64,000 nt of DNA from Methanocaldococcus indicus (GTDB lineage: Archaea; AGJL01; Methanococci; Methanococcales; Methanocaldococcaceae). A model generated the notes under the pieces. It worked only from the letters and a program-made list of their open reading frames with translations, had not been told where the DNA came from and did no database searches. The stretch covers positions 480,001-544,000 of the forward strand of contig NZ_CP186926.1 of the NCBI RefSeq assembly GCF_049554935.1, given 5' to 3'. Below are positions 1 to 6,631 of this stretch, piece after piece. Numbering within the stretch: position 1 is the first letter of the stretch; every line of letters begins with the position of its first letter. Both the position numbers and the translations under genes were made by a program.

Positions 1-289
1 TTAGCCCAATATCTGGAGGATTTTTTTCAGCCCATTCAATTAAATATTTAGCAAATTTTCCAATATTGACTCCTTCTTTTTCTAAACTCTTCATTAAAGC
101 AATTGCTTGCTCAGTATCATCTGTCCATTGTCCTTTTTTTAGCTTTCCTTTTAAATAATTCTTTGGTTCAACATAATCATCAACATATCCATACAACTCT
201 TTTATTTCCTCTTTTCTTAAATTTTCAGTTGGCATTCCTAATGCATCTCCTACAACAGCTCCAAACACTGAATAATAAATTTTATTCAT
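1..289 (-). CDS. ADP-ribosylglycohydrolase (DraG/ARH family), 5' part; runs off the window edge
   Basis: Manual minus-strand translation from ATG 289: [24 protein letters not shown]...[13 protein letters not shown]...PPDIGL. GDALG, WTDDT and DIG motifs are typical of the family. AGGTGAG RBS at 294-300. Confidence 0.9.
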
Positions 290-310
290 TAAACTCACCT
301 AATCCAATCC

Positions 311-330
311 AGGAAGGAAATTTCCTTCCT
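311..330. promoter_or_regulatory. Perfect 20-bp palindrome containing two overlapping NrpR operators (GGAA-N6-TTCC)
   Basis: AGGAAGGAAATTTCCTTCCT. GGAA-N6-TTCC occurs at 312-325 and at 316-329, upstream of an ammonium transporter. Confidence 0.85.
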
Positions 331-338
331 AAATAACC

Positions 339-347
339 GTTATATAC
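339..347. promoter_or_regulatory. TATA box, possibly bidirectional (amt / draG-like)
   Basis: TTATATA on +, TATATAA on -, centred between the divergent starts. Confidence 0.55.
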
Positions 348-368
348 CTAATTAGGAATTAGGACGTA

Positions 369-382
369 GGTAAAATAGTTCC
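369..382. promoter_or_regulatory. Near-consensus NrpR operator over the expected amt transcription start
   Basis: GGTA-AAATAG-TTCC (one mismatch), about 25 nt downstream of the TATA box. Confidence 0.6.
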
Positions 383-398
383 TATGGGTGGTTATGTT

Positions 399-1550
399 AT
401 GAAAGGGATAGATGTATTTTTCTTTTTATGGGCAGCATCATTAATATTCTTTATGAAGGCAGGATTTATAGCATTAGAAATAGGACAATTTAGAGCTAAG
501 AATGTTGCATATCATTGTGTTTTAAAATTGTTGGATTTAGCTGCTGTTTTTATTGCCTATCTTTTTATTGGTTATGGTATTTCCTATGGTTTTGAATATA
601 TATATCCACTTATAACAGGTAATTTTGATGCTGAGTTAGGGGCTTGGTGGATGAAGATGGTTATGTTTGCAGCTGCAGCTGTAACAATTATAACTGGTGG
701 TGTAGCTGAAAGAATAAAAATATTACCTTACTTTATTGGTGCTTTAATTGTAGGTGGTATTTTATATCCTATTGTTGAACATTTGGCATGGGGAGGAGGA
801 TTTGCAAGTTTAGGAATTAATTACCATGATTTTGCTGGAAGTGGAGTAGTTCATTTATTTGGAGGGTTAGTAGGATTGATGGCTGCTTATGTTTTAGGTC
901 CAAGAATTGGAAAGTATATAGATGGAAAACCAAGAGCAATTCCAGGACATAATATACCAATAGCAGTTTTAGGAGCATTTATATTGGCTTTTGGATGGTA
1001 TGGATTTAATATAGGAAGTGCTTCAGCTGTGGGAGATGGTTTAGAGTTAGTAAGTGTAGCAATAGCAACCACAATGGCATTAGCTGGAGGAATTATTGGA
1101 GGTGCTTTAAGCTCAAAAAATGACCCTCTCTATACTGCTAATGGTATGTGTGCTGGATTAGTAGCTGTATGTAGTGGAGTTGATTTATTCACACCTATTG
1201 GAGCATTTATAGTAGGATTAATAGCAGGATTTCAACAACCATTTACATTTAAATTTATTGAAGAAAAATTAAAGATTGATGATGTTTGTGCTATTGGTCC
1301 TGTTCATGCTATGAGTGGTTTTATTGGTGTTGTATTAGCTGGAGTTCCATTTTTATTGAAGAATGCAAATGAAGTTTCATTAATTGGGCAAATAATAGGA
1401 GCAATAGTTATAGCATTAGTTGCAATTGTTGGAGGGTTAATTATTTATAAAGGTTTAGATATTATAATGGGGTTAAGAGTTGATAAAAAATCTGAAGAAG
1501 AAGGGTTGGATATTGCAATCTTACAAACTTCTGCCTATTCCAATGAATAA
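399..1550 (+). CDS. amtB: Ammonium transporter (Amt family)
   Basis: DFAGSGVVH, FGWYGFN and DDV..GPVH motifs, multiple TM helices. ATG 399 preferred (RBS GGGTGG). Confidence 0.95.
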   Translation: MKGIDVFFFLWAASLIFFMKAGFIALEIGQFRAKNVAYHCVLKLLDLAAVFIAYLFIGYGISYGFEYIYPLITGNFDAELGAWWMKMVMFAAAAVTIITGGVAERIKILPYFIGALIVGGILYPIVEHLAWGGGFASLGINYHDFAGSGVVHLFGGLVGLMAAYVLGPRIGKYIDGKPRAIPGHNIPIAVLGAFILAFGWYGFNIGSASAVGDGLELVSVAIATTMALAGGIIGGALSSKNDPLYTANGMCAGLVAVCSGVDLFTPIGAFIVGLIAGFQQPFTFKFIEEKLKIDDVCAIGPVHAMSGFIGVVLAGVPFLLKNANEVSLIGQIIGAIVIALVAIVGGLIIYKGLDIIMGLRVDKKSEEEGLDIAILQTSAYSNE

Positions 1551-1568: not shown

Positions 1569-2813
1569 ATGGAACTGATATTAGGCATATTCTATTTAGG
1601 GGTTACATTAGTTTTTGGAGCATTAGTAGCTAAGTTGGCTGAAAAATTTGATATTCCAGATATTCCATTATTACTTTTAGTTGGAGTATTAATTGGTCCA
1701 ATTCTTCATATTATGCCCACTAAATCAGCAATGGACATTTTTGATATTGTTGGTCCAATTGGGCTAATTTTTATATTGTTAGGTGGAGCTTTCACTATGA
1801 GGATGTCTATTTTAAAAAATGTTATGGGTCCTGTTATTAGGTTAGATACTATTGCATTGGTTATTACTTTATTAATTACTGGCTTAGCTTTTAATCTTAT
1901 AGCTGGTTTGGATATCTACAATCCAGCAGGATATCTTATTGGAGCTATATTATGTGCAACTGACCCAGCTACATTAATTCCTGTCTTTTCCAAGGTAAAA
2001 ATAAATCCTGAAATAGCAATAACATTAGAAGCAGAAAGTATATTCAATGACCCTCTTGGAATAGTTGCAACAACTCTTGTTTTAGCAACATTAGGATTAG
2101 GAAAATCTGTAAATCCAATAATTGATTTAATTTCTTTAGCTGGAGGAGCAATTATAGTTGGATATATTGCAGCAAAAATATTCAAATGGGTAATTACAAG
2201 AGCTAAATTCTACGAGTATGTTGCACCTCTTGTATTAGGAGGGGCTATGATTCTATTATATTTAGGTGAATATCTATTCCCAAAAATAATAGGTTATGGT
2301 TTTTCAGGATATATGGCCATAGCAATAATGGCATTGATATTGGGAGATGATTTATCAAAAATAGCTGAAGAAAAAGAAGACTATGAATGTATTGTTAAGT
2401 TTTCAGATGTTTTAGCATTATTGTCAAGAATATTTATATTTGTTTTCTTAGGTGCTTGTGTGCAATTAGATGTATTATTCAAGTACTTTGTTCCTGGTTT
2501 AATAGTTGCATTAGTATCTATACTAATAGCAAGACCAATAGGTGTATTTATAGCATTGATAAAAACTAAATTTAATTTTGGAGAAAAGCTGTATATTGCC
2601 TTAGAAGGTCCAAGAGGAGTAGTTCCAGCTGCTTTAACAGTTACAGCTGCTATATTGATATTGAAACATATTGATGTTATATCAAGATTTGTTCCAAATC
2701 CTACTGAATACTCTCATTTAATATTAGTATCTGGTTTCTTAACAATATTAGTTAGTGTTATTTTAGAGGCATCTTGGGCTGGAATTTTAGCTGAGAAGTT
2801 GTTGAAAAAATGA
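1569..2813 (+). CDS. nhaP1: Na+/H+ antiporter, CPA1/NhaP1 type
   Basis: [12 protein letters not shown] and GPRGVVP motifs, hydrophobic. Confidence 0.9.
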
Positions 2814-3196
2814 TTATTGAAGGAAAAGTAGTATCTGGATTGGGAGAGGGAAAAAAGTATTTATCCATAAAGAAGTATAAGGAAGATATTAAAAAGTATT
2901 TAGGATTTTATCCTTATGAAGGCACTTTAAATATTCTTTTAAATAATGAAATTGACTTTTCCAATTTTAAATATTTTGAGACAGAGGATTTTACCCACAA
3001 CAATAAAAAATATTATGGAATTAGATTAATTCCAGTTAATATATTAATAAATGATACTAAAATTTCTGGTGGAATAGTTTTACCAAAAAAAACAAAACAC
3101 AAAAAAAATATATTAGAAATAATAGCTCCTATAAAGTTAAGAGAGAAATTTAACTTAAAAGATGGTGACACTATAAAAATAGAAGTGAAAAGATGA
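2810..3196 (+). CDS. ribK: CTP-dependent riboflavin kinase
   Basis: [17 protein letters not shown] and EIIAP.KLR motifs. Confidence 0.92.
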
Positions 3197-3882
3197 ATAA
3201 CGTAGAGAAAGCTATTAAACATTTAAAAGCTGGAAAGATTGTCTTAGTTTATGATGCTGATGATAGAGAAGGAGAAACTGATATGGTTGTTGCCTCAGAG
3301 TTTATAACTCCTGAACATATAAAAAGGTTAAGAAAAGATGCAGGAGGATTAATTTGTGTAGCTATACATCCAAAGATAGCTGAAAAATTAAGAATTCCTT
3401 ATATGGTTGATATTTATGATGTAGCAAAAGAAAAATTTAGAGTTTTAGAAGAACTCTATCCAAATGATATTCCTTATGATGAAAAATCTTCTTTCTCTAT
3501 ATCCATAAACCATAGAGAGACATTTACAGGAATAACTGACAAAGATAGAGCTTTAACAATTAAAAAACTATCTGAATTGGTTAAAGAAGAAAGATTTAAT
3601 GATTTTGGGAAAGAGTTTAGAAGTCCAGGTCATGTATTCTTATTGAGGGCTGTTGAAGGATTAGTTAAAAATAGGAGAGGTCATACAGAGATGACAGTTG
3701 CATTGGCAGAATTGGCAGGACTTACCCCGATAACAACAATATGTGAAATGATGGGAGATGATGGTTATGCTCTCTCTAAAAATGAAGCTAAAAAATATGC
3801 TGAAAAACATAATTTAGTGTTTTTAGAAGGTGAAGAATTAATAGATTATTATCTATCTCAATCAGATAACTCTTCTAAGTAA
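3193..3882 (+). CDS. ribB: 3,4-dihydroxy-2-butanone-4-phosphate synthase
   Basis: [22 protein letters not shown] and RRGHTE motifs. Confidence 0.95.
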
Positions 3883-4796
3883 TCTTCTAACTTTATACCT
3901 TGATTTTCAATAATATCCATCAATCTTTTAGTTATTATATTTAAACATTCTTCAACTGTCTTGCTTATTTTAATATTTTCAACAACTGGAATACCTTTCT
4001 GCTTAGCTGTTTTTACCATATAATCATTAATTAACCTAATAATTTTAAAGTGTTTTAAATATCTCTCTGTTGGTCTGCTTGAAACTTTACCTCTTGAATA
4101 AAATCTCATTTTGTGTAGTTCCTCATCACTAACAGTTAAAACAATAGGGATAATATATGGATTTTCAAGATATTTATCATCTAACAGAGATGGGACTATG
4201 TGAGTTCCTTCTATAATAACACTTTGCCCCTCTACCAAACATCTATTAATAACTCCTCCTACTCCTGTTAAAACTATCTCACTGTGTCTTTCAAATCCAA
4301 TAATATACTTATTGTCATTTTGGATATTTTCTTTTAAAACTTTCCATGCTGTATAACTTGATTCAAATAAAGTAGGGACTAAATCTCTTGTTATTGTTTT
4401 TCTCATAACTTCTCTTATAGAATCTGTTCCAATAACACTTGGTATTCCTAACCTTGATGCTATCTCAAAGGCAATTGTGGAAGTTCCTACACCACTTGCT
4501 CCTCCAATAAGAATAGCTAATGACATCTTAGATAAAACTATCCTCCACAGTAAGTATCTTTTGGCTATATCTTCAAAACCTTTTGATAGTAGATAGTAAT
4601 ATACTCTTCTTCTTAGCTCATTTTTTTTAATTTCAGTTATATTTTCCTTTTTTAAAATATCATATATTTCCAAAGCCAACCTGTAAGCGACAGATGGTTT
4701 TAATCCAGCAGCTGTTAAGGACCTTGCTAAAATTCCCTTTGAAAATGGGATTTTAACTCTCTTACCAACAACAATTATATCATCATTCAATGTCAT
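3858..4796 (-). CDS. pgk2: 2-phosphoglycerate kinase with N-terminal ATP-cone domain
   Basis: [14 protein letters not shown] cone, [10 protein letters not shown]-loop, TDSIREVMR. Confidence 0.9.
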
Positions 4797-5397
4797 CAAT
4801 ATCTACCTTCTCAGCATTATAAAGCTCCTTAGCTCTTCTATAAACTTTTAAATCATCCTCATCAGAAACAACAAAATAAATCTTTTCTGGATTAATCTTC
4901 TTTATAAATTTTTCAATGTTCTTTTTAGTTATTTCAATTTTCTTCTTGATTCCTAATAATGCCTTTTCATCTTTGATAATACTCTTATAATCTTCAATAT
5001 CTAAGAATCCATCTGTTGAGACAACATACAACCCTTTATTTTTAAGCTTTCTGAATAATTTTTTACTTGATACAATATATAATGCATTTTTATTTAGTTC
5101 TTTTTTTTCATAATGATAGCCAAAGTTAGATAATAACTTATTCAATGAATTAATACTTTTTATTATCAATTTACAAAATTCTTTTGCTTCATCTTCATTT
5201 AAATAGTGATTAGGGGCTTTTTTATAAAGATAGTCATCTGCCTCTAATAAACTATATATAGCATTTCTAAATTCATTAATGTCTATTTTTCCTGGCTTAG
5301 CATCTTTGTAAGATATTTTCTTTGTCTCTACTCTTTTCATCTTCTTTAACTTTGTTATTGTCTCTATCCCCTTCTTTATTAGTTCCTTTTCTCTCAT
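4783..5397 (-). CDS. Conserved methanogen protein (DUF2100-like)
   Basis: [11 protein letters not shown] and LYKKAPNH.L motifs. Sits in an operon with pgk2. Confidence 0.7.
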
Positions 5398-6631
5398 TTT
5401 CTAACCTCTCTAACTCTTCAACCAACAATAATAAAAAAGTTCCTACATCTGTAACAACACCAATAGCTTGGGAAGTTCCTCTATCCATCAACTTAGTTAC
5501 AACTGCCTGATTAATATCTACACATATTGTTTTAACCCATGATGGTAATAAATTACCTGTTGCAATTGAATGGAGCATAGTTGAAAGCATAATAACCATA
5601 TCTTTTCCTTTTAATAGTTCTCTCATCTTGTTTTGTGCTTCAACAACGTCAGTTATAACATCTGGTAGAGGACCATCATCCCTAATACTTCCTGCTAATA
5701 CATAAGGAATATTGTTTTTTATAACTTCATACATAATCCCATCTTTTAATAATCCCTCTTCAACTGCCTTTTTTAAAGAACCAGCTCTCATAATTCTATT
5801 TATAGCTCTCAAATGATGACTATGCCCTCCTGGAACTGATTTCCCTGTTTTTAAATCTATTCCCAAAGATGTTCCAAAAAAGGAAACTTCTGCATCATGA
5901 GTAGCCAAAGCATTTCCTGAAAATAGTGCTTGCACATATCCCATTCTTATTAACTTTGCTAATGCATCTCTTGCACCTGTATGCACAACAGCAGGTCCTG
6001 CAACTACAACAATTCCTCCCTTTCCTTCTCTTCTTACTTTTTCTCTAATCTTATACATCTCCTCTGCAATATTTCTTATAATTGTCTTTTTAGGTTTTTC
6101 AGATGATGCCTCAGATTTCATAAACTCAAATAATCCCTGTTCTCTTGGCTTTTCTGGTGGAATAACCCTAATTCCTTTATACCCTACAACTACCAAATCT
6201 CCTTTTTTTATCTGTCTAATTGTTTTTACTTCTACCCTCATCTCTTCTGGATAGACAACAATAGCTCCATCCATTTTTTGGTTTTCAACTTCTATCCATT
6301 GTCCTCTAAATCTAATAAATGTCTTATGATTTGTTGTAGAGTAAAAATTTTCTGGTAAGACCCAATCTCTCTCAGCAGGTTGTAGTTCAACCTCCTCTAT
6401 TTCAGGAATTTCAGCACCAAGTTCTCTTAATTCATTTAGAATAGTGTCTAAATGTTGTTCATCTTTTCCTATAACTAATATTTTTGCATAACTTGGGTCT
6501 ATCTTTCTCTTACCAATTTCAAACTCTAAAACTTTATAATCTCCTCCTAATTCTAAGATTTTATCAAAAACTTTTGGTAAAATTAAACTATCAATAATAT
6601 GTCCTCTTAGCTCAATCTCTCTCATAAACAT
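5297..6631 (-). CDS. TIGR00300 family protein (LOR/SDH-related, probable non-canonical ornithine cyclodeaminase)
   Basis: [31 protein letters not shown] and KLMDRG motifs. Confidence 0.88.

Follow-up and report, generated by a model that had tools for sequence, protein, structure and literature searches.

The first 1,550 nt of a 64,000-nt stretch of the Methanocaldococcus indicus genome (RefSeq assembly GCF_049554935.1, contig NZ_CP186926.1, positions 480,001 to 544,000 of the forward strand; G000:C1:480001-544000 in our numbering, called the window here; genome 1.41 Mb + 22 kb, 28% G+C) carry two divergent genes, one encoding a protein of the ADP-ribosylglycohydrolase (ARH) family and the other the ammonium transporter Amt1, and the spacer between them contains operators of the type bound by the nitrogen repressor NrpR. 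An earlier note on this DNA had called the first gene DraG-like and proposed a nitrogen-responsive de-ADP-ribosylation circuit linked to Amt. The account that we favour, with reasonable confidence, is that the spacer is a promoter module of amt1, that the ARH is not DraG, and that the ARH gene with its downstream partner trxB was placed under this module by a one-off promoter capture. The main result is in this sense a correction, as the idea of a DraG-Amt link depends on a rearrangement specific to this lineage and on a name that holds for the family only.

The ARH-trxB operon, the spacer and amt1

The complete ARH gene (294 aa, G000:C1:479408-480289, equal to L001:905-1789) extends beyond the left edge of the window; its 5' part (96 codons, PF03747 E 4.5e-21, ortholog of M. 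jannaschii MJ1187) is found at window positions 1-289 on the minus strand and begins with the ATG at 289-287. The gene is absent from the track of open reading frames (ORFs) because it is truncated at the window edge. A ribosome-binding site (RBS), AGGTGAG, was read from the sequence at 294-300 (minus strand), 4 nt ahead of this ATG. The amt1 gene (399-1550, plus strand) encodes a 383-aa ammonium transporter with a full-length match to PF00909 (353.1 bits, E 2.2e-105, profile positions 2-399 of 399). There are two candidate ATG codons for amt1, at 384 and 399; since the ortholog alignment begins at the 399 start and the GGGTGG sequence at 386-391 (plus strand), which has the same form in the leader of the congener G008, is suitable as RBS, the distance between the ARH and amt1 start codons was set at 109 nt. 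Downstream of amt1 there is a Na+/H+ exchanger gene and no adjacent glnK.

The spacer contains, in the order from ARH to amt1, a perfect 18-bp palindrome GGAAGGAAATTTCCTTCC (312-329) read from the sequence and made up of two overlapping perfect GGAA-N6-TTCC sites (GGAAGGAAATTTCC and GGAAATTTCCTTCC), at distances of 22 nt to the ARH ATG and 69 nt to the amt1 ATG; a near-palindromic TATA core GTTATATACC (339-348), also read from the sequence, which aligns with the amt1 TATA of congeners and reads GTTATATA on the plus strand at 339-346 (toward amt1) and GGTATATA on the minus strand at 348-341 (toward ARH); the element GGAATTAGGA (355-364, plus strand), conserved in an alignment of congener upstream regions, which might perhaps represent extra NrpR half-sites; and a one-mismatch operator GGTAAAATAGTTCC (369-382), detected by motif scan at the predicted transcription start of amt1. 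Both genes, the double operator, the TATA and the one-mismatch operator reported in the earlier note are all present. The junction is not an assembly artefact, because an independent metagenome contig (X3 record 17) matches L001 1731-1886 with 0 differences, spanning the ARH start, both operators, the TATA and the amt1 ATG; record 14 spans the trxB/ARH junction.

The gene after ARH is trxB, encoding thioredoxin reductase (TrxR; TIGR01292 345.7 bits, cut-off 343.45), which is single-copy in all 17 genomes of the genus. Its start, set by comparison with congeners, is a GTG that overlaps the ARH stop codon (GTGTATGA) behind a GGTGA RBS; by this overlap the two genes are predicted to be translationally coupled. 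In 16/16 congeners trxB has a different location, which in several of them is closely downstream of another gene.

NrpR-type operators in this genome

Four perfect GGAA-N6-TTCC sites occur in the window against 1.08 expected, and as 4 of 100 shuffles reached this number, the window alone is weak evidence. Strong evidence comes from the whole genome, which has 56 perfect sites, 12 of them within the approximately 8% of the chromosome uncovered by ORF calls (a fraction resting on crude calls). For glnA, nifH, modA, glnK-amt2, one unknown gene and two genes of ABC transporters, a perfect site precedes the start codon by 21-47 nt; among the sites in uncovered regions the glnK-amt2 operon has two, and two others lie in long gaps. 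NrpR is encoded by a 547-aa ORF with two NRD domains (PF01995). Based on the motif, the repressor gene and the presence of the motif at canonical nitrogen genes, the spacer sites are classified as NrpR-type operators, and the earlier reading of the spacer as an NrpR-type control region is borne out, the module being conserved at amt1 as well (see below). Lie et al. are said to have found overlapping NrpR operators at the glnK1 operon of M. maripaludis in 2010. When the exact 18-mer palindrome was scanned against genome contigs, 36 loci were found, all in unrelated bacteria and at about chance frequency; otherwise no species representative had the perfect palindrome.

At several promoters of this genome a recurrent design was documented in which operators flank the TATA at a distance of ~55-66 bp. 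Three genes show it in the same form (nifH, modA and one for an ABC transporter): a perfect operator precedes the ATG by 36-47 nt, and on the far side of the TATA, another 63-66 nt upstream, there is a one-mismatch operator. The modA gene is divergent from a gene for a metallo-beta-lactamase-fold protein (C1:473063-473194) and an ABC binding-protein gene is divergent from an NTPase gene (C1:819423-819540), in both cases with operators flanking a central TATA, 63 bp start to start; nifH has the same operator pair, 66 bp apart, without a divergent partner.

The set of sites matches the regulon and operator consensus of M. maripaludis NrpR as given in PMC2723118, with the repressor gene present and the same kinds of targets (nifH, glnA, modA, glnK-amt2 and amt1). 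The differences are that here the operators flank the TATA at several promoters, that the operator at the predicted amt1 start is degenerate (GGTA), and that the module adjoins the non-nitrogen operon ARH-trxB on one side. Control of amt and glnK genes by NrpR is already known; the novelty is modest and consists in the predicted lineage-specific addition of ARH-trxB to the NrpR regulon through a rearrangement in which amt1 also lost its paired glnK.

The spacer is a conserved promoter module of amt1

Orthologs of amt1 were found in 21 other loci (78-87% identity). The glnK gene is the divergent left neighbour in nine of them (all in this genus), lies downstream in eight and is missing from the locus in four. 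Among these four is G008 (L050, 1-1500), in which amt1 is divergent from glnA, a gene that has a TATA of its own and an operator identical in sequence to the glnA operator of the present genome. Within the genus the module is arranged in the order of overlapping operator pair, TATA, GGAATTAGGA, one-mismatch GGTA/GGCA...TTCC operator, leader, and GAGGTG. The overlapping pair, allowing one mismatch per site, is present upstream of the amt1 TATA in seven of the nine congeners with divergent glnK, and a one-mismatch GGTA or GGCA...TTCC site is found 36-53 nt upstream of amt1 in all nine. Of the 11 loci L052-L062, which come from other genera and from G003 and G015 of this genus, 10 have a perfect site no more than 90 nt ahead of the amt1 ATG, and the remaining one, L058, has its only perfect upstream operator at -227. 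Overall, 17 of the 21 other loci have a perfect site within 260 nt upstream of amt1, and the remaining four have one-mismatch sites. The upstream operator belongs to amt1, because in G008, where the partner glnA comes with its own operator, amt1 has nevertheless retained one perfect operator upstream, at -86.

In the alignment, homology to eight congeners runs from the double operator through the TATA and the GGTA operator to the amt1 start, and it ends in this genome exactly at the left edge of the double operator. Compared with the glnK/amt1 divergon of other Methanocaldococcus (MJ0059/MJ0058 in M. jannaschii), the amt1 ortholog (83-87% identity) and the operator-TATA-operator module are the same, and the Na+/H+ exchanger gene follows amt1 in 8/9 loci as it does here (none was found in L048). 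What differs is that glnK, ~100 nt of its leader and a third operator were replaced by ARH-trxB, and that 29 nt to the right of the TATA are missing. Both overlapping operators are perfect in this genome only. We conclude from these comparisons that the 109-nt spacer is the conserved NrpR-type promoter of amt1, comprising an upstream operator (here double), the TATA and a degenerate operator at the predicted start site. The module is an example of archaeal regulon rewiring, being combined with three divergent partners (glnK, glnA and ARH-trxB) in one genus.

Adjacency of ARH and amt1 in one genome only

The ARH loci of relatives were compared in 29 other Methanococcales loci (1.5 kb on each side) and in 79 more distant loci with ARH homologs (4 kb on each side; Archaeoglobales, Methanoperedens, ANME-2 and others). 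Neither amt nor trxB is beside ARH in any of the 29 loci, and none of these has an intergenic operator at ARH. Three perfect operators were considered and rejected as ARH sites: that of L029, ~210 nt upstream of ARH, is inside a 62-aa zinc-finger-like ORF, and those of L023 and L024 are at a distance of more than 1.1 kb. ARH is usually accompanied by a divergent xylose-isomerase-like TIM-barrel gene (PF01261), found in 15 of the 29 loci and in two families (L012-L018, L020-L022 and L030-L034); in this genome it is ~870 kb away from ARH. Among the 79 distant loci an amt gene was found near ARH once only, in a congener (L128, 4001-8495), where ARH is 2 kb from the glnK-amt2 operon with a DUF4013 gene in between and hence not adjacent.

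The draG/amt synteny that the earlier note suggested looking for across Methanococcales was therefore not found, and the adjacency, being seen in this genome alone, is the one-off rearrangement absent in relatives that had been named there as one half of the outcome speaking against the circuit, the other half being a draG transcript that does not respond to nitrogen or NrpR. Conservation of the operator with the regulated gene holds for amt1 and not for ARH. Because ARH was placed at this position by a rearrangement in this species only, a dedicated nitrogen-linked de-ADP-ribosylation circuit is unlikely; the locus is probably a case of regulatory capture by rearrangement rather than an ancestral DraG-Amt circuit. 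The pairing with the TIM-barrel gene is a better lead to the function of ARH than amt.

The ARH is of the MJ1187 type and not a DraG equivalog

The complete ARH matches PF03747 with 218.6 bits (profile positions 3-287) and is a full-length ortholog of MJ1187 (PDB 1T5J, an ADP-ribosylglycohydrolase fold titled hypothetical protein; 451 bits, residues 2-288). In G004, whose layout is that of M. jannaschii, and in 14 further genomes the ARH gene is divergent from the TIM-barrel gene with no operator, whereas here it is located between the amt1 promoter and trxB. The residues invariant in an alignment of ten Methanococcales orthologs are intact (G14 D15 ... T56 D57 D58 T59 ... G246 D248 T249 D250), which argues that the protein is probably an active enzyme; these residues include the metal-binding motifs of the family. 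Full-text literature searches on MJ1187 and on Methanocaldococcus ADP-ribosylglycohydrolase returned nothing relevant.

In diazotrophic proteobacteria, DraG is sequestered by the AmtB-PII complex. A DraG-like hydrolase acting on a new substrate in a nitrogen-responsive de-ADP-ribosylation circuit tied to Amt, with membrane sequestration as in those bacteria, would be in agreement with the DraG structures that follow 1T5J and are among the closest characterised homologs (2WOC, 86.5 bits; 3G9D, 71.5 bits; 3O5T was also matched), with the intact invariant residues, with the diazotrophic nature of the organism, the nif cluster (nifH-nifI1-nifI2-nifDK) being 11 kb away, and with an operator position that fits repression of ARH. 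We regard this as highly improbable for the following reasons. The best NCBIfam match of the protein is DraG (TIGR02662), but at 111.9 bits it does not reach the equivalog threshold of 337.05; the DraG label of the earlier note is valid at the superfamily level (PF03747) and fails at the level of the equivalog. The gene is present in 30 of 40 Methanococcales genomes and in all 17 of the genus, including the 12 without nifD (nifD orthologs are found in 5/17), while in the genus g3 ARH occurs in 3/13 genomes and nifD in 7/13, with four of the seven nifD-positive genomes lacking ARH; its distribution is independent of nitrogenase. A match to DraT (PF07357) was not detected at E <= 1 in this genome (99.25% complete), and the search for an ADP-ribosyltransferase proposed in the earlier note did not find the ART, SIR2 or Tpt1 families either; the PARP search had no working control and was uninformative. 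Furthermore, the ARH-amt adjacency is unique to this genome, the conserved partner elsewhere is the TIM-barrel gene, the amt1 module is shared with glnK or glnA in congeners, and amt1 has lost its adjacent glnK here. Methanogens use NifI1/NifI2 for nitrogenase switch-off instead, as stated in PMC12439982, in agreement with the earlier note, and nifI1 and nifI2 follow nifH in this genome. The likeness to the DraG/DraT-AmtB-PII switch of Rhodospirillum and Azospirillum is thus limited to a shared superfamily and a nearby amt gene, and the substrate of the hydrolase is probably unconnected with nitrogenase.

Predicted control of the ARH-trxB operon

According to the main text of PMC2699501, which does not mention MJ0058, MJ0059, MJ1187 or MJ1536, the protein-gene TATA of M. 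jannaschii is TWTATATA; of 134 promoters, 126 have its 3' edge 23 +/- 2 nt from the transcription start and 130 have a leader of at least 10 nt. By this rule GTTATATA predicts an amt1 start at ~370, on the GGTA operator, and GGTATATA predicts an ARH start at ~317, at the centre of the double operator; the predicted leaders are ~29 nt in both directions with the RBS at ~+16 to +22. The statement of the earlier note that an operator is located about where the transcription of each gene should start agrees with this geometry.

A position weight matrix (PWM) was built from 19 tRNA promoters of this genome. On the minus strand, no promoter-like site of at least 5 bits was found inside ARH; the sole strong site (12.1 bits) comes after trxB and before spt5-rpl11, and a 5.0-bit site is located inside the first amt1 codons, upstream of both operators. 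As no other promoter-like site was found, the ARH-trxB promoter must lie in the operator region or read through it. Transcription from the near-palindromic TATA read in reverse, with a start inside the double operator, is the most likely arrangement, because only 22 nt separate the ARH start codon from the double operator and there is no sign of another promoter.

We propose that at the amt1 module, which is shared with a divergent glnK in most congeners, glnK would have been swapped in this species alone for a housekeeping ARH of the MJ1187 type together with the coupled single-copy trxB; and that ARH-trxB would have inherited nitrogen control on displacing glnK. NrpR bound on both sides of the TATA would shut both directions when nitrogen is plentiful, and 2-oxoglutarate would be expected to relieve the repression of ARH-trxB. 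Since there is no room for an own promoter of ARH and trxB, the operon is probably NrpR-repressed through promoter capture, and the module in this species probably puts a thioredoxin reductase operon under nitrogen control; on balance the prediction that ARH-trxB is regulated by nitrogen is somewhat better supported than its opposite.

Several observations weigh against this regulation. The central TATA with its transcription factor B recognition element (BRE) scores +0.2 bits toward amt1 and only -3.9 to -5.9 bits toward ARH, as compared to 17.6 bits for nifH, 10.9 for modA and 7.5 for glnA with the same PWM, and the shared TATA of modA scores well in both orientations (16.4 and 10.9 bits); because both directions of the central TATA score poorly, the matrix was used for the search of alternative promoters only. 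The 29-nt stretch missing here to the right of the TATA carries in congeners a good BRE for the glnK direction. An auxiliary upstream operator is also present at the non-divergent nifH, and the double operator accordingly needs no second gene as explanation. As a housekeeping redox gene, the sole trxB is presumably always needed, and a tightly repressed promoter ahead of it would be unexpected. Together with the retention of the module by amt1 whatever the partner gene, most of these points favour operators that serve amt1 only, ARH-trxB being expressed constitutively at low level from the reverse TATA or a weak start, and an adjacency without regulatory consequence. We consider this unlikely: a transcript that originates in the spacer and enters ARH has to begin at the double operator, 22 nt from the ATG, or run through it, and between the spt5 promoter and amt1 there is no other minus-strand promoter except the 5.0-bit site inside amt1, upstream of both operators.

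Possible association of ARH with thioredoxin reductase

A TrxR gene is arranged tail-to-tail with an ARH homolog in 9 of the 79 distant loci, mostly in Archaeoglobales (L138, L143, L145, L150, L151, L154, L199, L202 and L205; ~4000-5900 in each). The TrxR assignments are genuine (TIGR01292 395.9 and 371.9 bits, cut-off 343.45), and the spacing is a 9-nt gap in L154 and a 14-nt overlap in L205. The other flanking genes are different between the two loci that were inspected. Taken with the coupled ARH-trxB pair, in which the overlapping stop and start codons join both genes, this arrangement hints at a functional link of the two enzymes, and it may equally be synteny inherited within one clade. 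ARH and TrxR might form a redox-linked (ADP-)ribosyl-hydrolase module, in which case the operon fusion and the recruitment to the NrpR regulon would be adaptive, for example in supporting nitrogenase under nitrogen limitation. This is improbable in our estimate, since the Archaeoglobales pattern may reflect the shared synteny of a single clade, the genes there are convergent and therefore not co-transcribed, and trxB is elsewhere and behind other genes in 16/16 congeners. Equally doubtful is the corresponding proposal that the operon of the sole TrxR and an MJ1187-type hydrolase has been adaptively wired into the NrpR regulon in the place of GlnK1 in this species only. If it were true, nitrogen limitation would increase the capacity for redox and de-ribosylation reactions, for instance to serve nitrogenase, and the independent ARH/TrxR adjacency in Archaeoglobales would mean that both enzymes act on a common substrate.

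Neighbouring genes, amt1 variants and glnK copies

The genes that follow amt1 (window 1569-3882) encode a Na+/H+ exchanger (PF00999), a CTP-dependent riboflavin kinase (PF01982) and DHBP synthase (PF00926), the last two overlapping by 4 nt; the amt1-exchanger order is kept in most congeners. In metagenome contigs of the runs X3 and X4, the first codons of amt1 are joined to its last ~100 nt, with 1029-1043 nt skipped (L001 1903-2950, window ~403-1450), and in the X4 version 25 other letters are inserted between the joined ends. These contigs represent either a divergent, non-mapping amt1 allele or a deletion variant in the population.

Two glnK copies encoding an identical protein are present at C1:973316-973666 and C1:977737-978093 (98.8% nucleotide identity over 343 nt, coding part only), so that the genome lacks a glnK adjacent to amt1 and has a second copy elsewhere. 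One copy is the first gene of the glnK-amt2 operon and is preceded by two perfect operators and a one-mismatch operator; the other has no operator and is located directly upstream of rpl1-rpl10. Just upstream of the second copy there is a 96-nt G+C-rich element (C1:978133-978228, minus strand; L090 ~1634-1729), for which an Rfam search gave no match. It has its own TATA-like box, a terminal T-run and two hairpins (-44.2 kcal/mol), and a repeat of it was found once, near C1:96113, covering no more than its first 32 nt (in a 35-nt match that begins 2 nt upstream of the element). By these features the element is a candidate small RNA.

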